From Leptospira sp. (GTDB lineage: Bacteria > Spirochaetota > Leptospiria > Leptospirales > Leptospiraceae): a DNA stretch of 64,000 nucleotides. Both the position numbers and the translations under genes were made by a program. The stretch's first letter is position 1. Each line of letters begins with the position of its first letter. The notes under the pieces were generated by a model. That model was not told where the DNA came from and ran no database searches. It was given only the letters and a program-made list of their open reading frames with translations. Positions 12,374 to 44,434 of this stretch are shown here, piece by piece. The stretch is taken from contig JAWXAQ010000015.1 of NCBI GenBank assembly GCA_034439575.1, positions 96,001 through 160,000 of the forward strand, in the 5' to 3' direction.

Positions 12374-13129
12374 GTGATTTACATTAAGAACAAATCAGAA
12401 ATTGATAAAATGAGAAAGGCGGGCGCATTCGCCGCGAAACTTCTCAACCATCTTGGTCCTTTCGTGAAAGTTGGTGCCAATACCCTGGAACTCAACGATC
12501 TGGCGGAAGATTTTACAAAAAAACACGGCCACCGTTCAGCTCCTTTGGGTTATAAAGGTTTTCCAAAATCGATTTGTTCTTCTATCAATAATGTAGTCTG
12601 CCACGGGATTCCCAAAAAAGAGGATATCTTAAAGGACGGTGATATTATCAATTTAGATGTATCACCCATCGTGGATGGCTACATTGGCGATACTTCCCGC
12701 ACTTTTTTTGTGGGTACCCCAAGCCCTGAAATCAAACAGCTCGTCGAAGATACAGAAAAATCTATGTGGATTGGCATTGAACAAGTCAAACCTGGAAACA
12801 GAGTGGATGAAATCGGCAATGCGATCGATGACTTTCTCACACCGAAAGGTTACGGTATAGTGCGGGATCTTATGGGTCACGGTGTGGGTAGAAATTTTCA
12901 TGAAGAACCACAGATACCTCATTTCCGTATGAGTCGCAAACTAGCAAAAATGGAAGCCGGAATGATTTTTACCATCGAACCAATGGTCAATTTAGGAACT
13001 TGGGAAGTCAATTTTGACAGACAAGACAAATGGACGGTTCGTACTAAAGACGGAAAATGGTCTGCCCAATTCGAACACACATTACTGGTTACAGACAAAG
13101 GCTACGAAGTCCTAACCCAAGAAAGCTAA
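12374..13129 (+). CDS. map: methionine aminopeptidase type I
   Basis: SINNVVCHGIP, DGYIGDTSRT, GHGVG, FTIEPM, SAQFEHT motifs. Confidence 0.97.
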   Translation: MIYIKNKSEIDKMRKAGAFAAKLLNHLGPFVKVGANTLELNDLAEDFTKKHGHRSAPLGYKGFPKSICSSINNVVCHGIPKKEDILKDGDIINLDVSPIVDGYIGDTSRTFFVGTPSPEIKQLVEDTEKSMWIGIEQVKPGNRVDEIGNAIDDFLTPKGYGIVRDLMGHGVGRNFHEEPQIPHFRMSRKLAKMEAGMIFTIEPMVNLGTWEVNFDRQDKWTVRTKDGKWSAQFEHTLLVTDKGYEVLTQES

Positions 13130-13198
13130 ATTTCGAAGATTTTTTTCTTGTTAAACCGAAAAAAATTGAGTCTATTAGAAAAACTTGTAGGAGTATTT

Positions 13199-13345
13199 AT
13201 GAAACTATCATTCACAACATTCGCAATTCTTAGTCTTTTTGGTGCAAGTCTGTTTGCCACAATATGTCCTGGAAAAGAAAAACGTTCCGAGTTTTGCCCA
13301 GGTAAAGAAAAAAGAACTTTAGATTGCCCGAGCGACGGAAAATAA
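13199..13345 (+). CDS. small secreted Cys-repeat peptide (48 aa)
   Basis: AGGAG RBS before ATG 13199; signal peptide MKLSFTTFAILSLFGASLFA followed by CPGKEKR x2 and CPSDGK. Confidence 0.7.
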   Translation: MKLSFTTFAILSLFGASLFATICPGKEKRSEFCPGKEKRTLDCPSDGK

Positions 13346-13385
13346 TTCTTTCCGTTTCCATTCTTAGGTAATGCGGCTAGGCTCC

Positions 13386-13781
13386 ATGTCAAAAGCGATT
13401 CTATTTGTAGACGATGAACAGATCATTTTGATGAGCCTAAAGTCTCAGCTCAAAAAACATTTTGGCAATGAGTATCGATATGAAACGGCTCAAAATACTG
13501 AAGAAGCATGGTCCATCATAGAAGAGTTAGCCGAAGAAGACATTCATATTCTAATCATTATTTCTGATTGGCTTATGCCCAATCAAAGGGGTGATGAATT
13601 TTTACGAGAAGTTCATAAGAGTTATCCTGGGATTAAAAAAATTATTATTTCAGGTCATATTGATGAAAATTCTCTCAACAAATTAAAAGGTGAAGTTAAC
13701 TTACATAGTTTCCTGAATAAACCTTGGTCTGAGTCTGATTTGATAAAAAAAGTGGAAGACGCTATTACGAAGATTGCCTAG
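13386..13781 (+). CDS. single-domain response regulator
   Basis: ILFVDDE, ISDWLMP, ISGH, FLNKPW receiver motifs. Confidence 0.9.
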   Translation: MSKAILFVDDEQIILMSLKSQLKKHFGNEYRYETAQNTEEAWSIIEELAEEDIHILIIISDWLMPNQRGDEFLREVHKSYPGIKKIIISGHIDENSLNKLKGEVNLHSFLNKPWSESDLIKKVEDAITKIA

Positions 13782-13805
13782 ATTCCAATTTGGAATACTT
13801 AGGTA

Positions 13806-14606
13806 ATGGAAAAAATAATAGAAAATATCATAGAAGATTTATCACTCGTTCGAAAAAACTCTCCTCTAGTTCATAATATTACAAACTACGTCGTCATGAA
13901 CAATACAGCCAATGCGTTGTTAGCTGTTGGAGCATCTCCGATAATGGCTCATGCGATTGAAGAAGTCGAAGACATGATCAGCATTTCAGGAGTGCTTGTC
14001 ATCAATATCGGTACTCTTTCTGAACCTTGGATCCAAGCTATGGAAAAGGCTATGAAAAAAGCAAAGGCTCTTGGAAAACCAATCGTATTTGACCCAGTCG
14101 GTGCTGGTGCCAGTGGTTTCCGCAATCAAACCATTAAACGACTGCTAGATGCCGCTTCGCCAAGTATCATACGGGGTAATGCCTCTGAAATTATCGCTAC
14201 CCTATCTTCATCAGGAAAAACGAAAGGAGTGGACTCAGTTGATTCCAGTGAATCGGCTGTGGACACTGGAAAAAAATTAAGTGAGATCACGGGTGGAACC
14301 GTCGTTATCTCAGGTGCCACAGATTATATAGTCACAGGCGGATCCTTACTCAAAGTATCCAATGGTGATGCCATGATGACAAAAGTGACTGGTCTCGGAT
14401 GCACGGCTACAGCACTTAACGGAGCTTTTGTGGCTGTTCAAAAAGACACAGCAAGAGCCGCTTTATCTGCGATGGCAGTAATGGGAATCGCAGGAGAAAT
14501 CGCAAAAACAAAATCGGAAGGGCCTGGAAGTTTTCAATTAAACTTTCTTGATGCATTATTTACAATCAATGCGGATGACATTAGAAAGAAATTCAAAGAA
14601 TCCTAA
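13806..14606 (+). CDS. thiM: hydroxyethylthiazole kinase
   Basis: PLVHNITNYV, ANALLAVGASPIMA, DPVGAGAS, RGNASEI, TGLGC. Confidence 0.95.
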   Translation: MEKIIENIIEDLSLVRKNSPLVHNITNYVVMNNTANALLAVGASPIMAHAIEEVEDMISISGVLVINIGTLSEPWIQAMEKAMKKAKALGKPIVFDPVGAGASGFRNQTIKRLLDAASPSIIRGNASEIIATLSSSGKTKGVDSVDSSESAVDTGKKLSEITGGTVVISGATDYIVTGGSLLKVSNGDAMMTKVTGLGCTATALNGAFVAVQKDTARAALSAMAVMGIAGEIAKTKSEGPGSFQLNFLDALFTINADDIRKKFKES

Positions 14607-15222
14607 AAAACGAATACGCGGTTTGTATTTAGTTACAGACCGCGATCTTTGCCTTTACCATGATTTAGAAACTGTAATACGTTTGGCGGTCCGTGGTGGA
14701 GTACAAATTGTCCAATTACGTGAAAAACATTTAAATTCACGTGATTTTTTGGACTTAGCCTTCAAAATTAAAAAAATTCTCTCAGATACAGATGTTCCCC
14801 TACTTATCAATGATCGTATAGATATAGCCTTGGCCTGTGATGCCGAGGGAGTCCATCTGGGACAAACGGATCTTCCTGTAAAAATTGCACGTGAAATACT
14901 GGGACCTTCGGCCATCATTGGACTTTCCGTAGAATCTATGTTAGATATTAAGGATGAAGAATTATCTTTGGTAGATTATCTCGGAGTATCACCTATTTAT
15001 AATACACTTACAAAAACTGATACCAAAACTCCTTGGGGTATCGAAGGATTAAAAAAAGTGAGAAGTAGTACAGACAAACCTCTCGTGGCCATAGGTGGCA
15101 TCAATGAAAGTAATGCCTTGGAAATGATAAAGGCGGGAGCAGACTCTCTCGCTGTTGTGTCTTATCTTTGTTCGGCGAAAGACCCAGAACTCAATGCTAA
15201 AAATATATCATGTTTGTTTTGA
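14575..15222 (+). CDS. thiE: thiamine-phosphate synthase
   Basis: LYLVTD, VQLREK, LINDRIDIA, GVHLGQTD, VAIGGI; start uncertain. Confidence 0.93.
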   Translation: MTLERNSKNPKKRIRGLYLVTDRDLCLYHDLETVIRLAVRGGVQIVQLREKHLNSRDFLDLAFKIKKILSDTDVPLLINDRIDIALACDAEGVHLGQTDLPVKIAREILGPSAIIGLSVESMLDIKDEELSLVDYLGVSPIYNTLTKTDTKTPWGIEGLKKVRSSTDKPLVAIGGINESNALEMIKAGADSLAVVSYLCSAKDPELNAKNISCLF

Positions 15223-15232
15223 AATAAAAAAT

Positions 15233-16228
15233 TCAATTTATATCTTTTTGTTTTTTTAGTAAATTTTTTGACTTTTGATTTTCATTATTTAGCTTTGCCA
15301 GATTGCGATTCCATTTTTTGACACCAATTCTTTGAATGCTTGTATTTTGAAATATATTATCAAATTCTTCTGAATTTAAAAGCTTCGATAAATTTAAATT
15401 TTCTTCAGCAAATATACCTCTAGGTTGAAATTCTGAAACTCGTGATTCAATTTGATTTCGTTTTGCTTTGATTTGATTCCATGGACAAACTTCCTGACAA
15501 ATATCACATCCATAGAGCCAGCCATTTAGAGAAATATCTTCAGGAATATCATCATTCTCATTTTCTATATTATGTTGTGATATGCATAGACTAGCATTGA
15601 TTTGGTATTCAGCAAATAAAGCACCAGTGGGACACGCATCTAAACAAGCGCGACAACTTCCACAATGATCAGTAGAAATATTTAAAGGTATTTCCCATTC
15701 GTAATCTGTCAGGATTGTGGAAATAAAAAAATAAGATCCTATTTCAGGATGGATTAAATTTGTATTTTTTCCCATCCAACCGATACCTGCTTGTTTGGCG
15801 AAGATTTTTTCTGGTATAGGTAAACTATCAACTGATTGTCGAAAATGAAATTCTGGATAATTTTGTTTTAAATATTTCAATAATGGTTTTGCCCTCTCGC
15901 GTAAAACTGAATGATAATCTTCTCCTAACGCATAACGAGACACTTTGGGATTCATACTTGCGAGTAAATCTTCCGACTTTTCGGATCTATACAACAAACC
16001 CAAACATATAACAGACTTGGGAATAAAACCCAAATGTTTTAAATGCAATCGGATTTCCATGCTGTTTTCCTTTGCATACCAACCCATTTGACCATGATGC
16101 CCCGATTGAACCCAATTTGAAATATACAGCCGTTCCGCGTCTGAAATTTCAGCTTTTGTGAAACCTACTATATCAAAGCCTGAACTCAAACAAAACGCTT
16201 TTATCTTTTCAAGATCGAGAGAATGCAA
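15233..16228 (-). CDS. queG: epoxyqueuosine reductase
   Basis: SRYALGEDYH, AGIGWMGKN, CGSCRACLDACPTGA, GCDICQEVCPWN. Confidence 0.93.
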   Translation of the reverse strand: MHSLDLEKIKAFCLSSGFDIVGFTKAEISDAERLYISNWVQSGHHGQMGWYAKENSMEIRLHLKHLGFIPKSVICLGLLYRSEKSEDLLASMNPKVSRYALGEDYHSVLRERAKPLLKYLKQNYPEFHFRQSVDSLPIPEKIFAKQAGIGWMGKNTNLIHPEIGSYFFISTILTDYEWEIPLNISTDHCGSCRACLDACPTGALFAEYQINASLCISQHNIENENDDIPEDISLNGWLYGCDICQEVCPWNQIKAKRNQIESRVSEFQPRGIFAEENLNLSKLLNSEEFDNIFQNTSIQRIGVKKWNRNLAKLNNENQKSKNLLKKQKDIN

Positions 16229-16241
16229 ATTTATTACCTAA

Positions 16242-16622
16242 ATGAATGATATGGAAGCATATCCAACTTTCAATGATAAATTTTCTCATTTACTGCATTG
16301 TAATGATGGGGAAATTATATTATCTATATTTAATCAAATATTGAATGAAGTCCCTATTAAGAAAGATATTGATGAACTTTTAAAGAATGGAATTTTATTA
16401 GCAATTTTGAAATCAATCCTCACACTTATGCAGCGTGAGATCAATCCTACGTCGAAAGAAATTCTTGGCGAATATCAATATCTTATAAATGAAATTGAAG
16501 AAGTCTATTTTAAGTTAAATCCCACAAATGAATCGAATTGGTTAGAAGAGTGTATCGCTTATGGGGATAAAAAAGCGTACCACTGGGAATGGAAACATTT
16601 TGGTTCTAAGGAATTATTTTGA
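16242..16622 (+). CDS. hypothetical protein
   Basis: 126-aa ORF divergent from queG. Confidence 0.6.
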   Translation: MNDMEAYPTFNDKFSHLLHCNDGEIILSIFNQILNEVPIKKDIDELLKNGILLAILKSILTLMQREINPTSKEILGEYQYLINEIEEVYFKLNPTNESNWLEECIAYGDKKAYHWEWKHFGSKELF

Positions 16623-16640
16623 AAGTGAAATAGTGATCAG

Positions 16641-17705
16641 CTATTTTTTTTTAATTTCAAATCGATAAACTCGCTGCATAGCAATCTCATCTAAACCAAG
16701 GATGGAAATACCAACTATAATGTGTTTGTTGATCTTTGAAATTTCCATTAGTCCGAAATTTTCTTTTGTATAAATGATGCTTTTTCTGCGACTATCTTCC
16801 ACTTCAATGGCTCTTTGTGGAATTGGCTTATTCATGGAACTTGAGGTGATATCAATAATTTGAAAGTCAGAATTTATTTTTTCTTCAAATATTTCAGCTA
16901 TGTGCCTATCTCCAGAAAGAATCAGATTTTTCCCTTTGGCATATTTTTCGAGAAGGGATATTAGTTTGCGCCGATCTTTTGGGAAATTACTCCATTTTTC
17001 GAAACGATGAGTATCGTTTAATACTTGTATGCTGGATGCGATTATGTACAAATCCGACTTTTCGTGCAGCTCTTTTTCTAACCAGACCCATTGTTCTTGA
17101 CCAAGTAAACTCGAGTTTATATCCTCATTGGGAATATACTCTCTTAGACCATCAGCTTCTGAAGTTTTTTCTTTGAGTTCGGTTCGAAATGAGCGAGTAT
17201 CCAATAAAATAAGCTTTATTTTTAGTCCTTGGAATAAAATTTTTTCTGAGGAAAAGATACCCTCCCTTTTTCGCATAACCGAATCAAGGGGAACATCTAA
17301 AAATTCCAAGAACAAATCTTTTGATTCATTTTTTAAGGGATAATCTTCACCGACATCATTGTAACCATAATCATGATCATCCCATACTCCTAAAATTTTT
17401 GTCCCTTGTTTCAATAAATTGTAATCTACATTTGACTTTTGTAAGTCATACGCTATTTTTTTTTCATCCATTTCAAAGGTATCTTGATAAATATTATCAC
17501 CTAACCATAACCAAATATTTGGTTCAGTCTTTAGAACGGACTTCCAAATTTTTTTTTCTAATTTTTGATCAAGGCAAGAGCCAAATGCGATTCGATATTT
17601 ATGCATTTGATCGGATTCTTTACTTTGTATAGAATTCTGAAAAAATAGTAATGCAAAAAATAGTATGCTTAATGTTAAAAATCGTAAGGAAACATTTTCT
17701 TTCAT
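16641..17705 (-). CDS. alkaline phosphatase D family protein
   Basis: Signal peptide, IAFGSC, LGDNIY, WDDHDY, LDTR, LSGDRH. Confidence 0.9.
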   Translation of the reverse strand: MKENVSLRFLTLSILFFALLFFQNSIQSKESDQMHKYRIAFGSCLDQKLEKKIWKSVLKTEPNIWLWLGDNIYQDTFEMDEKKIAYDLQKSNVDYNLLKQGTKILGVWDDHDYGYNDVGEDYPLKNESKDLFLEFLDVPLDSVMRKREGIFSSEKILFQGLKIKLILLDTRSFRTELKEKTSEADGLREYIPNEDINSSLLGQEQWVWLEKELHEKSDLYIIASSIQVLNDTHRFEKWSNFPKDRRKLISLLEKYAKGKNLILSGDRHIAEIFEEKINSDFQIIDITSSSMNKPIPQRAIEVEDSRRKSIIYTKENFGLMEISKINKHIIVGISILGLDEIAMQRVYRFEIKKK

Positions 17706-17860
17706 AAATCAAATTTGTAATAGTTAAAAAAGTAAGTCCAGCGAGTTCTAACGTACAATTATAGAAAAAAAAAATCTTAACAAGAAAATGTTACATTTCT
17801 AATCGATCACTATATATTAGTAGAACCGGCCAAATTAAAAGCAATATAAATAAATTGATC

Positions 17861-18017
17861 TCTAAACGAACTAGGCTACACGACGTTGTTCGTAACTGAA
17901 CCTCGTGTTAGTATCAGCGCGTCTTCTTTAAGAGCAAGAAGTCTGACGGAGGACTATGCGCCTTTAGACCGAGCGAGGGCGAAAATTCCGAGCGGAGCGT
18001 GTTTGCCGCAGTTATAC
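17861..18017 (-). repeat. attC-like site 1 (157 bp)
   Basis: On the - strand runs from inverse core GTATAAC to GTTTAGA; GC-rich imperfect palindrome homologous to 18801-18957 (shared AACGAACTAGGCTACACGACGTTGT, GCAAGAAG, TGACGGAGG, AGCGGAGCG, GTTATACG). Confidence 0.75.
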
Positions 18018-18033
18018 GAAGTTTGTGCTTTAA

Positions 18034-18459
18034 TTAAGCTTTTATCATTCTTTCATTGATGATTTTCAAAGACTTTCCTTTCTTTGATTTATAAGAACAA
18101 AAGTCACTATCTAAAGCGAATATATTATGAATATCGGAAACTTCAGAAATTGTCATAAGTGAAGCGTCAGCAAAATCCATTGGTCGATCAAAATATTTGT
18201 CCATGAAAAACAATATGGAGCTAAATTGTCCATTATCCTGGTTTAATATTGAAATAGCATTGTTATCAATCCATTCGATAAATGCCCTTTGTATTCTCTT
18301 ATTGTCTGACAATAAATAAGAAACTTCGGTAACAACTGCAAGTGATGTAAATAATTTACCTTTAAAATTCTTTAGAAAGGATCTACACTCAAGACAATAA
18401 TTATCAGATTCATCGAAAAAAGCAACGATGGGACCGGTATCAATAATTGCTTTTATCAT
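18034..18459 (-). CDS. vapC: VapC-family PIN-domain toxin
   Basis: IIDTG, VVTEV, MDFADAS, LDSDF acidic PIN residues; overlaps the antitoxin stop. Confidence 0.9.
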   Translation of the reverse strand: MIKAIIDTGPIVAFFDESDNYCLECRSFLKNFKGKLFTSLAVVTEVSYLLSDNKRIQRAFIEWIDNNAISILNQDNGQFSSILFFMDKYFDRPMDFADASLMTISEVSDIHNIFALDSDFCSYKSKKGKSLKIINERMIKA

Positions 18460-18700
18460 TTAAGTTTTTTTTCAATGCTTCTTTTATATATTTCTGATGG
18501 TTAATTGATTTATCGGAAATTCCGCTTTTATAAAGTCCGAAATATTTTTCACCTAATTCATATGCTGAAGGTTGCTTTGCGAAATTATCTATATAGTAAA
18601 CTAAAGATTCTTTAATTACTTCCGATTTGCTTTTATTTTCTATTTTAGCAACTTCTGATAGTTTTTTTTCAAGTTCTTCTGGTAATCTTAAGCTGATCAT
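18440..18700 (-). CDS. ribbon-helix-helix (CopG-like) antitoxin
   Basis: MISLRLPEELEKKL...KSKSEVIKESL; start set at 18700 by homology to 19364-19624. Confidence 0.88.
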   Translation of the reverse strand: MISLRLPEELEKKLSEVAKIENKSKSEVIKESLVYYIDNFAKQPSAYELGEKYFGLYKSGISDKSINHQKYIKEALKKNLNDKSNY

Positions 18701-18702
18701 AA

Positions 18703-18748
18703 TAACCTTGTGATACAAGTGTATCACAAGGTTAGATTTTCTTGTCAA
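18703..18748 (-). promoter_or_regulatory. TA promoter and palindromic operator
   Basis: Perfect 15-bp inverted repeat TAACCTTGTGATACA-AG-TGTATCACAAGGTTA (18703-18734); TTGACA on the - strand at 18743-18748. Confidence 0.75.
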
Positions 18749-18800
18749 GAGTTTGTTTTCTTCTTTATTCGAATCAAAAAATCCATTTAGCACAAATATC

Positions 18801-18957
18801 GCATAACGAACTAGGCTACACGACGTTGTCCGTAGCTGAGCCTCGCAGAGGCTTTAGCGTCGGCGCGACTTCTTGCAGCGCAAGAAGCGTGACGGAGGAC
18901 AATGTGCCTTTAGGCCAAGTATAAGTACCAAGCGGAGCGAGTCAGCCGTTGTTATAC
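18801..18957 (-). repeat. attC-like site 2 (157 bp)
   Basis: - strand GTATAAC...GTTATGC; internal hairpins CTTCTTGC/GCAAGAAG and AGCCTC/GAGGCT; same length as site 1. Confidence 0.8.
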
Positions 18958-18969
18958 GCTGGGTCGCGT

Positions 18970-19386
18970 TTACGGGGTAAATAAGTTTTTTAAAAACTTA
19001 CCTTTTAGAGTTTTATAGATTGAAAAATCAGAATCAATACTTATTATTCTTTCTATTCCGATTCTTTCGGAAATACACATAAGAGATGCGTCTGCTAAAT
19101 CCATTGGTAAGTCTGAATATTTTTTCATTCGATTTTTAATATATCTTAAATCTTCGATAGTTAAATCTATAATCTGAATACTTCCTCTTTCTATCCATTC
19201 GAGAAAATCCGATTGAGCATCATTTGAATAAGATAATAGATATATTACTTCTGTGACAACAGGCCAGGTTGATATTAATTCGCCTTTGAAAGACTTAAAA
19301 TATTTTAAACAAGGCTTATGAAATTTATCTTTTGAATTAAATAAGGCAATAATTGGTCCAGAATCAATTAGAACTACGTTTTGCAT
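18970..19386 (-). CDS. vapC: VapC-family PIN-domain toxin
   Basis: MQNVVLIDSG, VVTEV, MDLADAS, IDSDF; start at 19386 overlaps the antitoxin. Confidence 0.9.
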   Translation of the reverse strand: MQNVVLIDSGPIIALFNSKDKFHKPCLKYFKSFKGELISTWPVVTEVIYLLSYSNDAQSDFLEWIERGSIQIIDLTIEDLRYIKNRMKKYSDLPMDLADASLMCISERIGIERIISIDSDFSIYKTLKGKFLKNLFTP

Positions 19387-19624
19387 GTTTCTTATCAATT
19401 TTCTTCTGAAGATATTCTTTGCGATTTTGAGCCAAATCTTGGAGACCAGAATCGTATTTTCCAAATAGATCGAGACCTAATTCGTATGGAGTTTTAACAT
19501 TCCCTCTATTTTCAATATATTCTAGAATAGATTCCTTAACTACATCAGTTCGACTTTTTCCTTCAGCTTTTGCGAATGAATCTAATTTTCTTTCTAAATC
19601 TCGCGGTAGCCGTAAACTAATCAT
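19364..19624 (-). CDS. ribbon-helix-helix (CopG-like) antitoxin
   Basis: MISLRLPRDLERKL...KSRTDVVKESI...YELG. Confidence 0.88.
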   Translation of the reverse strand: MISLRLPRDLERKLDSFAKAEGKSRTDVVKESILEYIENRGNVKTPYELGLDLFGKYDSGLQDLAQNRKEYLQKKIDKKHAKRSSN

Positions 19625-19632
19625 TTTGAAAA

Positions 19633-19659
19633 TGTATCACAAATACGTATTACTGTCAA
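19633..19659 (-). promoter_or_regulatory. putative TA promoter and operator half-site
   Basis: TGTATCACAA shared with the 18703 operator; TTGACA on the - strand at 19654-19659. Confidence 0.55.
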
Positions 19660-20169
19660 ATAGTATTTTTTCTTTTTACTCATTGACTATTGTAGATTAC
19701 CCATGTCCTAATTCATACATTCGCGACCTTGCGCATAACGAATTAATTATCAAATGTCTGAAAAAATTTTCTATTGATAGTCAAAATAATTTCAATATTA
19801 AAAAATTATTAACCTCGATGAATTCCGTTATGATTACTTAGAAAAAAATTCAACTCATTTTATTTATGCGGCAACTAATTCGAGAAATTATCTTAATAGC
19901 GATCAAGTAATTCATGAGTTTTTCAAACCTTATTCTCAAAATAAATATTCATAATTTTTTTATCTGAATTAAAAGCTAACATTAAAGATATACTAGTGCC
20001 AATATATGAATTTTACCTAAACTTTAATTTTTATTTAGATTTCCTCAAATATTAAGATTCATTTATTTAATTGAAATCTTTAATTGTGGCTGATGCATTA
20101 GATGTAAAATGTTTGCAATGATTATCTAAAGATCTTCTGGATCATTAGATAATTAAAGGATACTAAACC

Positions 20170-20544
20170 ATGACACAAGAAGATATAAACTCTAAATTTC
20201 CGCATTCTTCATTTATTTAATTTCTTGAGAAACTACTTTCCGATTTTCAATCTAAACCAAAAAATGAAAGACTTCTTCTGCTCGAAATTACGTATCATTT
20301 CCTAGAACTGGATCTTGCCGAAATATAAATTCCGATTCTTTTTCGATCCAGGTTCTGGCCCTGGCTACTGGAGGCAGACGATGGGACGAAAGCTAAATAC
20401 GACTACGCGGTCGACAATCGTGAATTACCTTTAGACGAAAGTATCCGATTCGAAAATTACAAAATGGCTCTGTTAGAGATCGTAAGAAAAGAACTCGGCG
20501 AAAAATACGAAATAATCGATGAATCGGGTAATGATATCGTTTAA
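20170..20544 (+). pseudogene. pseudogene of a ~124-aa hypothetical protein with two in-frame TAA codons
   Basis: AAGGA RBS, ATG 20170, frame continues through TAA 20218 and TAA 20326 to TAA 20544. Confidence 0.55.
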
Positions 20545-20770
20545 CCGCGCCAGAGATGTTTTGCTTAAGCCCTTTTGCCCAGTTGTATGAAATTTACGAC
20601 TAACCACTGTGATAATGGCGTGAGTCCCAAATTCCTCGATTTGCATTTTGGTCTTCTTTCATAGAAAGTTTTTTGAATTTTACAGCGATTATGTGACATG
20701 ATATTATCGGGAGAATTTAAATATTATAATCCTAGATAATCTTGAAATTCGATTGGGAAGTTTAATCTTT

Positions 20771-22135
20771 GGGAAATTAATGCAATTCGTTAAAATGCAG
20801 ATCGAACGGATATTTGCATCGGAAGTTTACAATAGCTAAAATATTTTCAAGATTGAGATATCTCCAATCGTCCTTTATTACAATCCTGCATCCGTTCGAT
20901 TGTTCATCCCTCCGATCTTCCCTTGAAAAAATCATAACATTTGAATGTTTTACGAAATACGTAAAAATCCAAAGACTTTAACTCTTTCTTTGTTAGCATC
21001 CCAATTCGAACCCAAATGAATCCTGTAGCTCCTAAACAGAATTCTGAATAGGATGTGTAAATGTTGGGAAATTATCGCATTTTGTTAAAATGCCGATCGA
21101 ACAGAGAATTAGATCAGAAGTTTTCTATGAGTAAAGTATTTTATAGAATGAGTCATTATGAATCAAACTTGCCCGATACCTTTCATTCAATGACATATTC
21201 CCACATTCTTTATAACATTCCTGCATCCAGCAGGTTTTCCGTCAGAAAAGCCTACAAATTTGCATATTTTGAAGCTGTGCCTTAAAATTCTAATAAGTTC
21301 GATAGGAAACTCCATTATAAACCCGTCCAAATCAGGATCAAAATGAATCTGGTAGCTCCAATCTCAGAATTTGACCTCGATGCTTACGTCTTTTCATTTT
21401 TCCTAAGGATTCCAAATCTCGAGGGATTTATTGATATTGCAAAAATTCAATTTGGATCGGAAATTTATCATTGATCGAAAGCCATTTAGATTTATTGGAA
21501 TATTAGAATAGAGTGAGTCGTGTCGATTGAAGGCCGTCATTCGGAAATTGACCAAAAATGGTATGTTTTACGAAATGCGAGTAAATCGAATCGACCCAAA
21601 TCCAATACTTTCCCTCTACTCTCGCTCCAATTCCAAAACACAATCCTTGCTCAATTTTCTAAAAATTTCTCATTTTTCCGGTGGAAACTAGAATTTTCTG
21701 AAATTGGCGCATTTCGTTAAAATCCAACAGATGACTCGAATTTACCCACCTATACAATTTCGATCCGAATTTATCAAGACTATCCTTCGGAATTTGACCA
21801 AATTTGGCACGTTTTACGCAATGCAGAAAAAACGCAATATCTCAGATCTCAATTTTACCCCCACTACACTCGCAAAAATCTCATCCAAAATATATCCATT
21901 GGATTCAAAACTCGGACTTTTCTCGGTTTCTATAAATTTTGCATTTTTCCGAAGGAAATCAGAGTTTTCGGAAATTTCAGCAATGCAATAAAAACCAACA
22001 ATCAATCTTAATTTGCATAACAATCCAGTCCTAAATCGAATTTTAGACGCTCGAACCGTTCCCCTGCCCTATTTTTAATTTTTCCTTCGGAAATTTTCTA
22101 AAAATGACACGTTTTACGTAATACAGGTAAATTCC
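20771..22135. repeat. degenerate tandem array, about five units of 270-360 bp
   Basis: Recurrent GGAAATT..GCAWTTYGTTAAAAT (20771, 21066, 21699; degenerate at 21423, 21970) and GTTTTACGNAAT (20947, 21565, 21811, 22111). Confidence 0.75.
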
Positions 22136-22202
22136 GAAGTAGATTAGAACCCTTACTTCCACAAAAGTATCTGAATCCTTAAAAATTATATCATCTGCGC
22201 CA

Positions 22203-22320
22203 CCGATCGAAGCGTAAATCCTTCCCTTGCTAAATAATTTATTGAATAAGGAAAAAATCGGAAGATTGCAGCGTAGAGCGGGACCCGAAGCAATGCTAGC
22301 AATTGATTCGGGGGCGCCCC
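22203..22320. repeat. REP-like GC-rich intergenic element
   Basis: CCGATCGAAGCGTAAATCCTT...AAGATTGCAGCGTAGAGCGGG, then CCCGAA...TTCGGG; resembles dispersed repeats recalled from Leptospira genomes. Confidence 0.45.
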
Positions 22321-22531
22321 AATAATTAACATACGCAAAAATTAAAAATTTTTAAATTAGCTGCGATTTTTAATCGATGATTCATCTATTTATTTTATTT
22401 CAAAAAATGTGCTTTAGTTAGGTGTCATAGAACGCCGAATAGGAGAAGAAATACGAACATTCGCTACAGATTCAATAAATTGTCTTTTTTAATTATTGAT
22501 AATGTAACGGAAATTGTATGATAAATTCTAA

Positions 22532-22939
22532 ATGAAAAAGAAAATGATGATGCTTAAAAATAAAAATTCTATGAATATAGTTCATTTCATTCACCAAACG
22601 CAAAAGTACACAACGTTCACATTTTCAAAATGGAACACCTTACAGTTGAATGCGAAAATTCAGATGCATGGATGTTTATCTACTTACATCGATTTTTTGA
22701 TAGATAGATATTCCTTTAGAGTTTATGAAACATTCAAGTTTAACAAAATCGCCTTAGACCAAGAGGCCATGATTCATTCAGAAGAAAAAATGAGGATCAA
22801 GTGTCGCATCTTTGAATCCACACTTGATGAATTATCCGAACTCGCGGAATATGCAATGATGAATAAAACTAAATTATTTAGAATTTTATTAAAGTGGGAT
22901 ATCAATAATCCAAGTCCGAGACTCAGGCTTATCGCCTAA
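22532..22939 (+). CDS. DUF1564-like protein (putative C-terminal RHH)
   Basis: KMRIKCRIFESTLDELSELAEYAMMNKTKLFRILLKWD strand-helix-helix pattern; start uncertain. Confidence 0.55.
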   Translation: MKKKMMMLKNKNSMNIVHFIHQTQKYTTFTFSKWNTLQLNAKIQMHGCLSTYIDFLIDRYSFRVYETFKFNKIALDQEAMIHSEEKMRIKCRIFESTLDELSELAEYAMMNKTKLFRILLKWDINNPSPRLRLIA

Positions 22940-23337
22940 AAAGAGGCTAATTCGTTTGTTAGATAAATTCTGAATTCTTCTGGAATAGATTTTTTCAAAC
23001 CATTACGATAATCATAATATACTTGTACAGTTTTTGCTCTAACATGTTCTAATTTTCTATTTTCATTCCAAATACTATATTGAAAATCCCAAGATGTATT
23101 TCCGATTCTCGATACCCAAATTCTAACTTCAATTTGGTCACCGGGCAATACCGAAGCGACTAAATCCATTTCGACTCGAGCCAGAACAAATGGAATGTCT
23201 TCCAGTGTATCAATTTTCAGATATTTATTACAAAAATGCAATCGTGCAATTTCTAAATACGAGGAATAACTAGCGTTATTGACTCTTCGCATAGGATCCA
23301 TATCATTAAATCGAATTTGTATAGGAGCGGAGATCAA
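22936..23337 (-). CDS. acyl-CoA thioesterase (4HBT/FcbC family)
   Basis: IRFNDMDPMRRVNNASYSSYLEIAR. Confidence 0.9.
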   Translation of the reverse strand: MISAPIQIRFNDMDPMRRVNNASYSSYLEIARLHFCNKYLKIDTLEDIPFVLARVEMDLVASVLPGDQIEVRIWVSRIGNTSWDFQYSIWNENRKLEHVRAKTVQVYYDYRNGLKKSIPEEFRIYLTNELASF

Positions 23338-23351
23338 TTGTGAAATGACAC

Positions 23352-24374
23352 CTAACGTTTTTTACTCTTTTTGGCAGAATTCTTTTTTCTGGAAACCTTG
23401 AGTACGTTTTGTTTTTTAATAGAAGATTTTTTGCTGATCAAGACTTGTAATTGATTTTTGGGATTTTTGAGTTTTGGTCCTAGATTAAAAATATTTTTTA
23501 AATAGCTTGCGGCCTCTTCTCCTTTTTTAGTCCCTAATTGTACTGTATCATATAATTTTTTTCTGACAGTCGTTGTTAGAGTAACAGGAAGAGGAAGGTC
23601 TGGTGCAATGGTATGAATGATTATCCCTTCTGGTGGTTTTTTAGCAATGGTTCTTCCATGATTGAAGTTGTGGTGGTGCCAGCGTTTCATCATTCTTGCA
23701 ATTTTCCAATTTCTCGGGAAAGCAAACATGCTAGTTAGAAGGCTCAATGGTTTTGAAATGTGTTGGATCGGAGAGTTCATTATAACAATGATTTCTTTAT
23801 AACCCGCTTCGATTAAATCTTGGATGGGTAAGGGATTTAATATAGCGGCATCAGAATATAATTTACCTTCTAACCACTGTTTACCTTTTGTTGCAATTGG
23901 TAGAGAGGTCGCTGCCTTCAATAATTCAAATATATTTGATGAAGTGGCTTTTATATATTCTACACTATGTGAATGCAAATTACTAACAGCAATTCGGAAT
24001 TCAGGAACACCTTTCTTTTCCAAAAATTCTGATTCTAATCGAACTTTTTTACGAAAGATAAAATCAATAAGGTACTCTTGGTCCAAAAAAGTTTTACCTT
24101 GAAAGGGATGTAAAAGAGAAATCAACTGCCGTCCCGATAGGTCCCGATACCATACACTCAAAGCCCTTTCGCTTTTAATAGGTTCTGGATCTTTCATAGT
24201 CACATAATAAGCCGCCGAACATGCCCCAGAGGACACACCGACAACCAAATCAAAGTATTGTGGTCCTAGAAATTGATTTAAACTATAAAGCACACCGCCA
24301 GAAAAAGCGCCTTTCATTCCCCCACCTTCTACAAGCAGGACGCGCTTTGTGCCTTTAGCTTCTGGAATTTTCAA
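23352..24374 (-). CDS. patatin-like phospholipase
   Basis: EGGGMKG, GVSSG, catalytic D in YSDAA; basic C-terminal tail. Confidence 0.88.
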   Translation of the reverse strand: MKIPEAKGTKRVLLVEGGGMKGAFSGGVLYSLNQFLGPQYFDLVVGVSSGACSAAYYVTMKDPEPIKSERALSVWYRDLSGRQLISLLHPFQGKTFLDQEYLIDFIFRKKVRLESEFLEKKGVPEFRIAVSNLHSHSVEYIKATSSNIFELLKAATSLPIATKGKQWLEGKLYSDAAILNPLPIQDLIEAGYKEIIVIMNSPIQHISKPLSLLTSMFAFPRNWKIARMMKRWHHHNFNHGRTIAKKPPEGIIIHTIAPDLPLPVTLTTTVRKKLYDTVQLGTKKGEEAASYLKNIFNLGPKLKNPKNQLQVLISKKSSIKKQNVLKVSRKKNSAKKSKKR

Positions 24375-24462
24375 TAAAATACCCTCTAAAAAGTAAGAGC
24401 TTCAAAGTGTATAATAGTTGCAAAAACTTTTAGACTTCGAAACCAATGATGTTTAAAAAAAA

Positions 24463-24969
24463 TTATGATTTGAAAGGCATTTCCCCAAGATAATCTTTTT
24501 TTCCAATGTCCAATCCATTTGATCGAAGTATGGCATAAGCAGTCGTTATGTGGAAATAAAAATTGGGAAGTGCATGATGCAATAAATACTCTTCACCATT
24601 CATATATTTTCCTTCCCATCTTGGTTGAGATACCTTGATGTCTTTTGCCCCATTAAAATCTGTTTCTTTAAAAGTTTTTAGATAATTGATGGTCGCTTCA
24701 ATTCTCGTTTTTAAATCGCTTAAAGTTTTTTCTGAATCATCAAAACTCGGAGCATCTTTTCCTGTTATACGAGATGCTGCAAATTTTGCCGTATCACATG
24801 CGATTTGAATCTGTTTAATTAATGCAAATTGGTCAGCGATGAGACGCGAATTTAATAAAACATTAAAATCAATTTTTTTAGCTTCCGCTTGGGTTGATGT
24901 TTTTTCCAAAAATTTAATCAGATTTGATAGTCCTTTTGAAAATTGTTCGATTGTAATTTGATAAAGCAT
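24463..24969 (-). CDS. DUF1993 family protein
   Basis: QIQIACDTAK, LPNFYFHITTAYAILRSNG, GKKDYLG. Confidence 0.9.
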   Translation of the reverse strand: MLYQITIEQFSKGLSNLIKFLEKTSTQAEAKKIDFNVLLNSRLIADQFALIKQIQIACDTAKFAASRITGKDAPSFDDSEKTLSDLKTRIEATINYLKTFKETDFNGAKDIKVSQPRWEGKYMNGEEYLLHHALPNFYFHITTAYAILRSNGLDIGKKDYLGEMPFKS

Positions 24970-25139
24970 AGGTTCCTTTAGAATTTTTTGACAGATGATA
25001 GAGACTGGAATACAATTTCAGCCTGAATTTACATAGTTTGGACGAATGGATTTTTTGAAATGGTTTAATTTTTGAAATGAGAATCTATGGATAAATTCAA
25101 ATCTTGGTTTACCAAAGATCCTGATCCGGAGTTTTTTCT

Positions 25140-25535
25140 ATGAAATCAATAAAATCACCACAGCTTCTATTTGTAGCATTTTTACTTTTACTTTCCCCAA
25201 TTTTTGGAACGGATAAAGATTTTATCATTAAAGATATCAAAGTAGGCACTGGAAAGGAAGCTTACTCTAGTTCTTATGTGACCGTACATTATGTAGGCAG
25301 ATTGAAAAACGGCGTCAAATTTGATAGTTCTAGAGATAGAAAAAAGCCTTTTGAATTCAATCTAGGGGCAAGGGAAGTGATTCGTGGTTGGGACAAAGGC
25401 ATTGTGGGCATGAAAGAAGGTGGAATTCGTAAACTCACAATCCCCCCAGAAATGGCCTATGGAGAAAAAGCAACAGGCTCTATCCCTGCAAATTCCACTC
25501 TCATTTTTGAAGTCGAACTCCTTAAAGTTTATTAA
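25140..25535 (+). CDS. FKBP-type peptidyl-prolyl isomerase (exported)
   Basis: VHYVGRL, KFDSSRDR, VIRGWD, IPPEMAYG, LIFEVEL. Confidence 0.95.
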   Translation: MKSIKSPQLLFVAFLLLLSPIFGTDKDFIIKDIKVGTGKEAYSSSYVTVHYVGRLKNGVKFDSSRDRKKPFEFNLGAREVIRGWDKGIVGMKEGGIRKLTIPPEMAYGEKATGSIPANSTLIFEVELLKVY

Positions 25536-25693
25536 GTAGCCGTAAGTTTTACAAATTCTTCTGCAAATATTCGCAAAATTTTAAGAAAAAGGTTTGAAAC
25601 TGCATTTTTTTTTCCGATTCTTGCAATAATCCGTAAATATGAGGATTTCCTCTCTTTTGCGAAATTGATTATATAAGAATTGAAAATATAAAA

Positions 25694-25978
25694 ATGAAAA
25701 TAATTGTCGAAGAAACAAATCTCACCTATGAGGGGCTAAACGACTTTCATAACAATGTTATAAAAGTCCTAGAAACTTCCATATCAGATGTGATTTTGGA
25801 TTTTCAAAAAATTACAATGACACTCGATAGCTCAGCAATCGGTGAATTAATGAAATTTCACACTTATATGGAAAAAAGAAATTTATTCCTTCACCTAGCA
25901 AATGTTAACAAACTCACAAAAACTGTATTTCGATTGAACAAGCTTGATACCATTCTAAATCTCATTGATTCAGAATAA
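25694..25978 (+). CDS. STAS-domain anti-anti-sigma protein
   Basis: VILDF...LDSSAIGEL...VFRLNKLD. Confidence 0.85.
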   Translation: MKIIVEETNLTYEGLNDFHNNVIKVLETSISDVILDFQKITMTLDSSAIGELMKFHTYMEKRNLFLHLANVNKLTKTVFRLNKLDTILNLIDSE

Positions 25979-26320
25979 AATTGCAAATAAGCAATAGATA
26001 GTATCTCGAAGGCAAATAAGAATGCCACTACCAATCTTGCTAATTTCCAAATAGGCACATAGATTTAGTTTTTTTAACCATAATGCCCACCTATGGTAGG
26101 TTTTGTGGCTTTCAACGCAAACGTTCGATTTACCAATTCTCACATGGTTCCATTTCCCAAAATTTTAATCATCATAATCGATTTTAATTTTCTTTAGATT
26201 TTAAATCCCGATTTATGATTCCTTTAGTCCAATTAGTACCTAAAAAAAGTTTCTTCTATTTGGAAATTTTCTGTTGACGTCGAATAGTTCAATATTAAAC
26301 CATTCAATATAGGAGCTTTT

Positions 26321-40374: not shown

Positions 40375-41079
40375 ATGTTGGATCAAAACCGCATCGCTCT
40401 TGTAACAGGCGCTAATCGTGGAATCGGAAAACAGATCGCTATGGATCTTGCCGCGATTGGTGTATTTGTCATCGTTGGTTCAAGAAACGAAGAAGAAGGT
40501 GAGATTACAAAAGACTTAATTTTAAAAAAAGGCGGGAGAGCAGAACTTTTTCCCGTTGATGTTTCAAAAGAAAAATCATTAACAGCTCTCTCTGATTATG
40601 TAGAAGGAAGTTTTGGGAGATTAGATATTCTTATTAACAATGCTGGGATATTTTTAGATACTGGTGAGTTTGTAAATACGTCAATGGAAGAATTAACTTC
40701 CACCTTACAAACAAATGTAGCAGGCCCTCTTCGTCTGATTCAATTATTTCTCCCCCATATGATTCAAAACAATTATGGTCGTATCGTCAATGTTAGCTCA
40801 GGCATGGGCCAATTATCCGATATGGGCACAGGATATCCAGCTTATAGAATTTCTAAAACGGCGATCAATGCGATCACAAAAATCGCAAGTGCGGAAACAT
40901 CAGGAAAAAATATAAAAGTAAATTCTGTTTGTCCCGGTTGGGTAAAAACGGATATGGGTGGTCCCAATGCGAGTCGATCCATTGAGAAAGGGGCTGAAAC
41001 TATTGTTTGGGCCGCATTACTTCCAGACGACGGCCCTACTGGAAAATTTTTCAGAGATAAGAAGGAAATTGAGTGGTAG
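40375..41079 (+). CDS. SDR-family oxidoreductase
   Basis: TGANRGIG, NNAG, YRISK, CPGWVKTDMGG. Confidence 0.95.
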   Translation: MLDQNRIALVTGANRGIGKQIAMDLAAIGVFVIVGSRNEEEGEITKDLILKKGGRAELFPVDVSKEKSLTALSDYVEGSFGRLDILINNAGIFLDTGEFVNTSMEELTSTLQTNVAGPLRLIQLFLPHMIQNNYGRIVNVSSGMGQLSDMGTGYPAYRISKTAINAITKIASAETSGKNIKVNSVCPGWVKTDMGGPNASRSIEKGAETIVWAALLPDDGPTGKFFRDKKEIEW

Positions 41080-41150
41080 AGATAGTTTTTATCTAATTGA
41101 AAATCATATCGAACGCCTAGTTAACGTTTGACGGATCAATGCGATAAACT

Positions 41151-41187
41151 TATCCATGCTCGTGCTCGAAAGCAAAAGGCATGGATA
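41151..41187. terminator. hairpin between convergent genes
   Basis: TATCCATGC...GCATGGATA. Confidence 0.45.
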
Positions 41188-41192
41188 GAATT

Positions 41193-41708
41193 TCAGACGA
41201 TTTCTACTAATAACTTATCTAGTTCCAAATAACATTCCGCCATACCATCTGCCGCTCCGGTTTCAAGCATCATCTTACAAACTTCAGCGGAACCGTATCT
41301 ACATAGATGTGTCATAAGAGTCTTATCACCTTCAGTCGTGAAAGTCCGTGACTCGAAGGTAGCACCGGGATCTTCGGGAGCATTTGGATCGAATGTCGAC
41401 ATATCCATCACATAATTCTCGCTATTGGCTAATTTTTCAGGTATGATCACCTCTTTAAATGTCCCATAAACGCCGGATTTATTTCCCTGTGAATCCATAT
41501 AAAGATACAAGTATTTGCCACCAACCTTTAGATCTTGTTCGCAAGTTTCAAGAACCATACCTTCAGGACCAATCAGCCATCGACGCATTAACTCAGGTTT
41601 GGTGTGGCAGTCGAATACCAAAGCCCTCGGGGCTGAGAAGTAGCGAGTAAAAACGACTTCTGTTTCACCTCGAATTTCCATCTTCACTTCATTTTTTTCG
41701 GTTTTCAT
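41193..41708 (-). CDS. SRPBCC/AHSA1-domain protein
   Basis: TRYFSAPRALVFDCHTKPELMRRW, DLKVGGKY. Confidence 0.88.
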   Translation of the reverse strand: MKTEKNEVKMEIRGETEVVFTRYFSAPRALVFDCHTKPELMRRWLIGPEGMVLETCEQDLKVGGKYLYLYMDSQGNKSGVYGTFKEVIIPEKLANSENYVMDMSTFDPNAPEDPGATFESRTFTTEGDKTLMTHLCRYGSAEVCKMMLETGAADGMAECYLELDKLLVEIV

Positions 41709-42048
41709 TTTGTTTATCTCCCTTTGATTGTATTGTTTGTAATTCTTCTAATAGTCCATCTAACACTTGGTAACGTGATTCCCACAATTGGCGGTATTTT
41801 TCCATCCATTCGATCGCAACTTTTAGAGGGGCGGTTTCCAAACGTCGCGGTCGTTCTTGGGCACGGATCGTTGTCGAAATAAGCCCGGCTTTTTCCAAAA
41901 CTCTTAGGTGCCGAGAAATAGCGGGCTGGCTCATATGAAAAGGTTTTGCGAGCTCCATAACTGTAGATTCGCCAGTGGCAAGGCGCATTAGTATTTCTCT
42001 ACGAGTGGGATCAGCGAGGGCAGCGAATGTGGAATCAAGTGTTTGCAT
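41689..42048 (-). CDS. ArsR/SmtB-family regulator (SRPBCC-associated)
   Basis: FAALADPTRREIL, MSQPAISRHLRVLEKAGLI; start 42048 or 42054. Confidence 0.9.
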   Translation of the reverse strand: MQTLDSTFAALADPTRREILMRLATGESTVMELAKPFHMSQPAISRHLRVLEKAGLISTTIRAQERPRRLETAPLKVAIEWMEKYRQLWESRYQVLDGLLEELQTIQSKGDKQNENRKK

Positions 42049-42174
42049 AACCATCTTGTTATATAAATAACTGGCTATACGAAAGAAATAAGTCAACCTA
42101 AATTTTTATTATAATTCATATATTGACCTCTTTTTTTAGAACTAGAATGAACGACATTCATCAACCTTAAATCC

Positions 42175-42294
42175 AGAACGAACGGGACAATGGCAAAATG
42201 CTTGCTTGTGTAAGCTAGCGAGTGCTAGAAGAAATATGTGACAAAGCCCGAGCGAATGTTTGTCCCGAAGTGCAGCGTTAAGCCACCGTTAGTC
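42175..42294 (-). repeat. truncated attC-like site
   Basis: Inverse core GACTAAC 7 nt after the stop of 42302-43009; CGGGACAA/TTGTCCCG and CTAGC/GCTAG inverted repeats; distal arm missing. Confidence 0.55.
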
Positions 42295-42301
42295 GCTCTA
42301 C

Positions 42302-43009
42302 TTATTTATTCCAAGCTACAACTTTTACGCCTGGAGAAAAATGAGAGCAAAAAGGCTTATTAAAATCAACAAAGTTACTAAATTCATTGTATTTAATATT
42401 TAAGTCAGTTATATCGATATTCAATAATTCCCAAGGTTTATGATGAATTTCTAATCGTTTGATACTTTGATTACAATACTGATACAAACAATATCGTTCC
42501 GTAAGCCAATGATCCCTTTCGGAAATATTTTTTAAATTTGAAATTTTATATTTGATATCAATTTCACTTCGTTTGCCTGTTAAAGCGAAGGAATTTTGGT
42601 TTCTAATAATATTTGAATGTTTGTAAGGTAATCCTGACATTACGTTTGCTAAAATTGTCGGAATCAATTTTTCAGCTTCAATACTTAAAAAATAAACACC
42701 TTGTTTTTCATTATTTTTTACATAAGTTCTGAGATTTATTTCATGAAAATTTGAAATTGGATTTAATTGAAAAGAATTCCGGATATGGATTCTATTCATT
42801 GTAAATGCAACGATTGAAATCCAAGTTTCATTATTAAAAGAATCTAAAATTAAATCTTTAGGAACGAATTTTCGTAAAATACCTTCATCTATTTTGTAAT
42901 GAAGAAAAATTGCATTATTCCATTCTTGATACCAAAACCATTTTCTTTTTGGATAATCCCAAGGTCGATGACTAGTATGTTTTAGTATTTCTTCTATTTC
43001 AGAATTCAT
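42302..43009 (-). CDS. DUF2071/YqjF family protein (cassette-like)
   Basis: QEWNNAIFLHY, FHEINLRTYV, GVYFLSIEA, LTERYCLY, IHHKPW. Confidence 0.88.
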   Translation of the reverse strand: MNSEIEEILKHTSHRPWDYPKRKWFWYQEWNNAIFLHYKIDEGILRKFVPKDLILDSFNNETWISIVAFTMNRIHIRNSFQLNPISNFHEINLRTYVKNNEKQGVYFLSIEAEKLIPTILANVMSGLPYKHSNIIRNQNSFALTGKRSEIDIKYKISNLKNISERDHWLTERYCLYQYCNQSIKRLEIHHKPWELLNIDITDLNIKYNEFSNFVDFNKPFCSHFSPGVKVVAWNK

Positions 43010-43125
43010 TTAAAAGCATGGTTGCTAACTAATAATTGCATGGGATCTTTTTTTGTTTATATATTTAGTTTAAAATAATTGGTTATAAAAATTTAACATA
43101 AACTTTGTTAATCAAAATTAGGCGA

Positions 43126-44430: not shown

Positions 44431-44434
44431 AAGT

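Follow-up and report, generated by a model that had tools for sequence, protein, structure and literature searches.

Why should the two ends of a gene cassette be complementary to one another well beyond the recombination core, in a sequence that changes from one cassette to the next? The question is raised by a 64,000-nt stretch of Leptospira sp. DNA (contig JAWXAQ010000015.1; hereafter the window), in which two VapBC-like units with minus-strand genes, cassette A (18011–18807) and cassette B (18951–19739), are accompanied by two copies of a 157-nt repeat resembling an integron attC site. In plus-strand coordinates, one copy precedes cassette A and the other lies between A and B. The recognition of integron recombination sites depends on shape, and in the accepted picture that shape extends no further than the 7-bp R box. 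We consider it probable that in Leptospira the attC helix extends past the R box and that this outer helix belongs to the recombination substrate.

Pairing of cassette ends in the window and across the genus

The first-pass annotation of this locus reported that each cassette ends in its own imperfect inverted repeat, and both the coordinates and the complementarity were reproduced. The left arm of cassette A agrees with the reverse complement of its right arm at 16 of 19 positions and the arms of cassette B agree at 15 of 18, with mismatches in both cassettes at positions 6, 10 and 11 counted from the tip. The outer parts are unlike between the cassettes (TTTGTGCT in A, GGTCGCG in B), yet they are paired within each. 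Both cassettes match at all seven of positions 12–18, a result seen in 2 of 9506 shuffled pairs from related arrays (at least six matches in 54 of 9506), and the rarity of such matches places the pairing in the window beyond chance.

The repeat is present in 39 of the 40 other genomes of the genus, and two complete chromosomes carry it in long arrays (50 sites over 63 kb in G036 and 65 sites over 80 kb in G017). R boxes were placed for 49 of the 50 and for all 65 sites, two of the G036 matches being the parts of a single site that an insertion has divided. The outcome was a first set of 112 cassettes bounded on both sides, 98 of which have unique outer arms. At positions 12–18 the ends of the same cassette match in 96, 93, 94, 95, 90, 73 and 46% of these 98, compared with 54, 28, 26, 28, 25, 25 and 29% for shuffled partners; from position 19 outward no matching signal was found in the same cassettes. 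Positions 5, 6, 9 and 10 also covary, and variants of the R box pair within their cassette, for example GTTAGCC with a distal GGCTAAC. Four of the 98 match at three or fewer of the seven positions 12–18, and in at least one of these the site is interrupted by an inserted element. Two attC sites of the G036 array (L049–L050, near array positions 12699 and 19460) are cut directly after GTTATG by the same insert, and some element therefore appears to target such sites.

A second set was taken from three species whose recombinase is about 52% identical (G026, G029 and G033; 77 sites, 58 cassettes and 52 unique arms). Here the ends match in 79–98% of cassettes at positions 12–17, compared with shuffled values of 69% at position 12 and 24–27% at positions 13–17, and two of the three poor pairs stem from an anchoring error. 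Covariation of the two ends beyond the R box, predicted by the annotation from the window, thus holds in 154 unique cassettes from five genomes, with matches in 87–98% of them at positions 12–16 compared with about 26% for shuffled partners. The partners are the two ends of one cassette and not the two flanks of one site: at positions 12–17 the flanks of one attC match in 29% of comparisons versus 91% for the ends of one cassette, and at positions 5–7 the match is 96% within a cassette versus 62% across one attC. The start of each cassette is therefore complementary to its own distal R box, which is the signature of a circular intermediate. Positions 1–8 and 11 are nearly invariant in sequence, and positions 12–17 have no consensus.

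As a control we used a genome from the Spirochaetota that encodes a true IntI (508 bits; cut-off 265) and has 27 sites of 63–68 nt. In its array (26 cassettes, duplicates kept) the ends match in 96, 81, 73 and 69% of cassettes at positions 5–8, and in 12–27% at positions 9–14 compared with 11–27% after shuffling. Pairing in this canonical array stops at position 8, which indicates that the long end pairing belongs to the Leptospira system and not to integrons generally.

The conserved 2-nt bubble that the annotation proposed as a possible recombinase determinant is not borne out. Conservation is confined to position 11, where 150 of 154 cassettes have a G.T wobble on one strand. Position 10 is mismatched in 17 of 98 cassettes in the first set and 7 of 52 in the second, mostly as T.T, and position 6 is paired in 92 of 98, so that its mismatch in the window is local. 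The pattern seen in cassettes A and B is one general feature (position 11) combined with one minority variant (position 10) and one local mismatch (position 6).

Read on the window-sense plus strand, which is antisense to the genes (the 'bottom' strand), the 150 cassettes carry G in the left arm and T in the right arm at position 11 and so form a G.T wobble; read in gene sense, the pair is an A.C mismatch. The remaining transition mismatches of the helix likewise lean towards the plus strand, 29 to 10. On the plus strand the sequence outside position 17 is rich in T on both sides (41–63% T on one and 73–78% on the other at positions 18–20), so that the 17-bp helix would end sharply between two T-rich single strands. 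The core of the site has the anatomy of an attC, with an imperfect palindrome, R boxes (GYATAAC/GTTATRC), an asymmetric unpaired spacer (GAACTA versus GTA), a 9-bp L stem and strand asymmetry. In 111 of 113 sites at least 8 of the 9 L-stem positions are complementary, and variants of the stem covary. The base following AAC on the plus strand is G, as in the classical sites treated in PMC2727003. Site anatomy, end covariation, strand bias and the difference from the canonical array are all shown directly.

Folding simulations agree with a helix that is completed by excision. On the plus strand, simulated circle junctions reach −50.5 kcal/mol, compared with −41.3 kcal/mol for the same site in its array, and the end helix forms in 107 of 111 simulated junctions versus 8 of 111 sites in array context. 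The plus (bottom) strand exceeds the top strand in stability by 7.8 kcal/mol, and the simulated junctions of the window gain 8.0 (A) and 6.4 (B) kcal/mol. The annotation had placed the pairing in the excised single-stranded circle; covariation and simulated junction folding support this placement, which we infer from comparison and folding. The R-box stem did not appear in minimum free energy folds of single attC sites with native flanks, and an Rfam scan gave no family that matches the attC. The arm core presumably resembles an Xer binding arm; when the window genome was searched for dif-like sites with the R-box core in common, 103 loose matches came up, none convincing.

Cassette arrays and their recombinase in related genomes

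Each array in the relatives has a tyrosine recombinase of 363 or 367 aa at one end, co-oriented with the cassette genes. The recombinase-proximal cassette ends at ...ATAAC|TCC... in non-attC sequence, forming an attI-like junction. In 112 of 112 cassettes the longest open reading frame (ORF) lies opposite to the window-sense plus strand, and the arms of a cassette are 700–4400 nt apart. A co-oriented array beside a recombinase gene and an attI junction, one of the marks of an integron, is found in the relatives, and not in the window genome (G000), which has no such recombinase. In G017, the cassette adjoining attI looked unusually long. Judged by its architecture (attC, attI junction, co-oriented cassettes and circular-permutation signature), the Leptospira system is an integron.

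The recombinase itself is less easily placed, and in source records the protein is annotated as XerC or as a generic tyrosine recombinase. Against the IntI model TIGR02249 (cut-off 265 bits) the array recombinases score 189.7 and 192.0 bits, matched in two stretches, and against the XerA/integron model they reach 203.5–210.7 bits (cut-off 220). They also fall below the equivalog cut-offs for XerD (178 versus 329.6) and XerC (161.9 versus 335.15). With the integron-integrase model at E ≤ 1e-45, none of the 45 genomes of the family gave a match, and 29 of 301 Spirochaetota genomes pass the cut-off. The nearest solved relative is VchIntIA (PDB: 2a3v; sequence E 5.8e-40, Foldseek E 5e-18, 32% identity), followed by archaeal XerA (PDB: 5hxy and 4a8e), and the catalytic and SAM-like domains are both present. 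In place of the IntI-specific insert, residues 259–289 (31 aa) stand opposite residues 187–248 of IntI4 (62 aa), and the predicted model has only a short, low-confidence loop at this position. Judged by model score and by alignment, the Leptospira recombinase fails two defining tests of an IntI, the model cut-off and the insert.

At its N terminus the protein carries an additional domain of about 78 residues (L055:1186–2277, minus strand, residues 1–78), which is well predicted and has a beta-beta-alpha-beta-beta-alpha order. It matches Pfam HARP at 27.3 bits (cut-off 25). Fold matches are weak, to archaeal XPB N-terminal domains (TM 0.59–0.60) and to the SMARCAL1 HARP domain (TM 0.51), with E values of 0.017–0.083, and a Foldseek search with the N-terminal domain alone gave no match at E ≤ 0.001. 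Assignment to a HARP/XPB-like fold is thus a lead, resting mainly on the Pfam HARP match. HARP and XPB N-terminal domains bind branched DNA. Across 35 homologues, F20 and W45 of this domain are nearly invariant.

The window locus and its genome

The features of the window locus are collected in Table 1. Site a was delimited from repeat families D5, D8 and D11, with genome copies found by nhmmer and BLAST; it is 74% identical to site b and lies 3' of the cassette A genes in gene sense. Both cassettes combine a PF01850 toxin with a preceding RHH_1 antitoxin, as expected of type II toxin-antitoxin (VapBC-like) systems, a class to which they are assigned by prediction. The true start of the cassette A antitoxin is probably internal to the ORF as listed; this protein also scores 23.4 against DUF6290, under the cut-off of 27. 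No attC consensus follows position 19739, and the non-attC sequence there marks the right end of a two-cassette insert. A Pfam scan of the cassette units found no transposase, and no recombinase ORF lies within 13000–26000 of the window. Comparison of flanks for an empty site was limited by distance, the nearest genomes being 67–70% identical in the neighbouring PhoD-like gene with flanks that do not align. With two neighbouring attC sites (a and b) and no integron integrase near them, the locus fits the definition of a cluster of attC sites without an integrase (CALIN), namely at least two nearby attC sites with no integrase in the vicinity.

Table 1. Positions of cassette, arm, attC-type and coding features within the window.
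Feature	Position	Strand	Details
attC-type site a	17861..18017	+	hybrid R box TCTAAAC (17861–17867) to GTTATAC (18011–18017)
Left arm, cassette A	18011..18029	+	R box + 12-nt outer arm
VapC-like PIN-domain toxin ORF, cassette A	18034..18459	-	Pfam PF01850, E 7e-8
Ribbon-helix-helix antitoxin ORF, cassette A	18440..18793	-	RHH_1 22.5 bits (cut-off 20.5), residues 33–68
Right arm, cassette A	18789..18807	+	outer arm + R box GCATAAC
attC-type site b	18801..18957	+	GCATAAC ... GTTATAC, 157 nt
Left arm, cassette B	18951..18968	+	15/18 complementary to 19722–19739
PIN-domain toxin ORF, cassette B	18970..19464	-	Pfam PF01850, E 5e-10
Ribbon-helix-helix antitoxin ORF, cassette B	19364..19624	-	Pfam RHH_1, E 2.4e-6
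Right arm, cassette B	19722..19739	+	terminates in GCATAAC
Third, solitary cassette	42139..43031	+	attC-type site 42139–42283; nhmmer match C15:138139–138273

The 37 contigs of the window genome hold about 11 copies of the repeat at six loci (nhmmer). End-to-end pairing was also found in other cassettes of this genome, on contigs C11, C13 and C21 and, by eye, on C26 and C36. In five solitary loci and in the two-cassette locus, the order on the window-sense plus strand is repeat, gene unit, no repeat, which places the repeat 3' of the genes in gene sense, as with attC. The solitary cassette in the window has a minus-strand ORF of 235 aa (42302–43009) that matches no NCBIfam family; its R boxes are GTTAAGC and TGCTAAC, and its ends pair less strongly, across an indel.

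The array recombinase is missing from this genome (no match at E ≤ 1e-40, with completeness of 99.98%) and present in 40 of the 40 other genomes of the genus, making it the sole genome of 41 to lack it; nor does the genome contain a TIGR02249 match above the cut-off. On this basis the window locus is an attC cluster without an integrase, and since the relatives have dozens of attC sites, this genome seems to have lost its recombination platform and kept scattered cassettes. A different enzyme, a 305-aa XerA-like recombinase, is encoded on contig C11 (about 40691–44826; L006 and L011). It scores 231 bits with NF040815 (cut-off 220), is 32% identical to the array recombinase and is without the N-terminal domain. 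Some 2.6 kb downstream of this gene, two short attC-like sites (about 57–70 nt) flank a cassette with end pairing of at least 19 bp.

The annotation also held that A and B had been mobile independently, and for cassette A this is supported by an 86% identical copy in another species (G012), with different neighbours and another attC type. That copy keeps the same outer arm and carries its host's type of attC, with the R-box variant changed at both ends. Cassette A therefore exists in different contexts, as its occurrence in G012 and G034 indicates, and the history of an attC core can differ from that of the cassette body. In the G034 orthologue (L020), 10 nt comprising the R box and the first arm bases are gone between two GAAGTT repeats; this deletion fuses attC to cassette and is a likely route to fixing a cassette in place. 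As to which attC travels with a cassette, the five solitary loci, the two-cassette locus of the window and the attI end all point to the one downstream of the gene.

Elsewhere in the window, a Flavo-1 RNA match at 22194–22289 on the plus strand (46.7 bits; gathering score 42) lies directly to the right of a block of 270–300-nt direct repeats (20744–22132; families D1–D3).

Proposed mechanism, alternatives and known systems

In the mechanism we propose, the attC helix would run about 10 bp past the 7-bp R box, 17 bp in all, into cassette-specific sequence. Since covariation starts at position 5, the crossover would lie inside this helix, within the invariant GTTA/TAAC, a placement that fits the classical G|TT point (PMC2727003). 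With the crossover inside the helix, integration would split it: one half would remain next to the attC of that cassette, and its partner would come to lie at the opposite cassette end. A complete helix would then exist only in the excised, single-stranded cassette, excision having rejoined the outer arms. The outer helix may stabilise the folded site and add to the bottom-strand bias, and would probably offer a full-length duplex arm to an Xer/IntI-like recombinase that is without most of the IntI insert. Being absent from resident sites, the full helix could favour capture over excision. Folding in vivo, recognition by the recombinase and any activity are what we infer. For excision and integration by way of the folded bottom strand there are indirect signs, namely the strand-biased wobble and the presence of cassette A in different contexts in two species.

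A bolder version, which we advance tentatively and hold to be possible but doubtful, would make of this a distinct Leptospira class of integron. The IntI insert reads extrahelical bases; here, the recombinase would instead read a longer R-arm helix, the G.T wobble and the T-rich flanks, partly via a HARP/XPB-like domain that binds structured DNA. A full helix formed only after excision would tell free from resident cassettes, biasing the system towards capture and towards stable large arrays.

Several other explanations of the arms were weighed against an outer helix that forms part of the recombination substrate. They might be sequence-specific half-sites in double-stranded DNA, in the manner of Xer sites, with G versus A at position 11 marking left and right and no hairpin involved. 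Such an arrangement would suit both an Xer/IntI-like enzyme and the near invariance of positions 1–8 and 11, but positions 12–17 are matched in 73–96% of cassettes without any consensus and positions 5, 6, 9 and 10 covary. Matching without a consensus implies selection for pairing and not for sequence, and the 29 to 10 preference of transition mismatches for one strand also counts against half-sites, which we think improbable. The complementarity could alternatively be functionless and left over from cassette genesis, for instance from the asymmetric cutting of a long ancestral palindrome. How cassettes arise is not understood, and the window genome keeps its arms without a recombinase, as a leftover would allow. 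Against it stand the maintenance of pairing in 154 unique arm sequences with a sharp end at positions 17–18, the lack of any such leftover in the canonical array, and the 86% identical orthologue of cassette A, in which the R box differs at both ends, matched within one species, with the arm otherwise kept. We give this origin little credence.

Pairing in RNA, as a long-range stem that insulates or processes the cassette transcript, would account for arms that bracket the coding region of each cassette. The gene-sense strand, however, has the A.C at position 11 while the wobble is antisense in 150 of 154 cassettes, the R box, which is the recombination core, lies in the same helix, and 700–4400 nt separate the arms; we judge an RNA stem very unlikely. 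Finally, the 157-nt repeat could be an element like a miniature inverted-repeat transposable element (MITE) inserted into palindromic targets, whose halves would be the arms. Its dispersal, with about 11 copies at six loci, would be in keeping with this, but the flanks of one repeat match at positions 12–17 at the chance level of 29%, which effectively rules out a small element inserted into palindromic targets. The partners flank the gene unit instead, and the repeats form arrays of 50–65 units beside a recombinase, so that an origin of this kind is extremely improbable. A transposon or MITE with constant terminal inverted repeats was likewise considered and rejected: the outer arm (positions 12–17) differs between cassettes, and there is no transposase.

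A number of observations weigh against an outer helix that takes part in recombination. No excision, circle or recombination was seen, and the three public runs with an array stretch consist of contigs only, in which rare products are invisible. The contrast of G and A at position 11 could label the two ends in duplex DNA instead of forming a wobble pair. For the simulated junction of cassette A, the minus strand has a slight edge in stability (−29.7 versus −26.6 kcal/mol). The window copies have no integrase and are probably inactive or relics, the window cassettes carry extra mismatches at positions 6 and 10, and the end helix in this genome may itself be a relic. As to the travelling attC, cassette A carries host-type attCs in two species; in five of five between-genome cassette pairs it is the other attC that is more similar, and in four of five the expected attC is of a different size class. 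The comparison of duplicated cassettes is noisy because all attCs are about 83% alike.

The outer helix as part of the substrate can also be set beside known systems. Like the Vibrio cholerae superintegron and the Treponema integrons, the Leptospira system has arrays of one- or two-gene cassettes with homogeneous folded attCs. As in the Treponema integrons, a tyrosine recombinase and an attI-like junction stand at one end, co-oriented with the cassettes (PMC3607928). Sedentary chromosomal integrons share the R box, unpaired spacer and L stem, a cassette start complementary to its own far R box, and toxin-antitoxin cassettes. Unlike theirs, the end pairing in Leptospira reaches position 17 instead of 7–8 and includes a conserved G.T wobble at position 11, and the recombinase is below the IntI cut-off, with about half the IntI insert and an added N-terminal domain. 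The attC sites measure 143–175 nt, compared with a range of 57–142 nt given in PMC2727003. The recombinase resembles VchIntIA and XerA in its catalytic and SAM-like domains, and differs from both in its shortened insert (31 versus 62 aa of IntI4) and in its extra 78-residue N-terminal domain. The window locus resembles a CALIN (Cury et al., 2016; PMC4889954) in having two attC sites and two cassettes with no array-type integrase genome-wide, and differs in that its attC sites are of the extended Leptospira type.

The abstract of PMC3607928 describes Treponema as the only spirochaete clade with integrons, and PMC8138268 calls the IntI insert 'not fully conserved' in a subgroup of integron-like recombinases. 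In our literature search no paper turned up that described integrons in Leptospira or attC pairing that continues past the R box; the search did not cover the supplementary tables of integron surveys, which could list these arrays. Relative to the literature found, three features are new: the end helix, the position-11 wobble and the recombinase's N-terminal domain.

Saprophytic Leptospira thus hold large cassette arrays. The roughly 150 cassettes compared here form a natural family whose helix exceeds the accepted shape by 10 bp and would be split by integration and restored by excision. The extended helix occurs together with a recombinase that is without most of the hallmark domain of integron enzymes. 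It becomes possible to ask by what route an Xer-like recombinase acquired activity on folded single strands, how the right strand can be selected without the IntI insert, and whether a recombination site can signal that its cassette is excised or resident.

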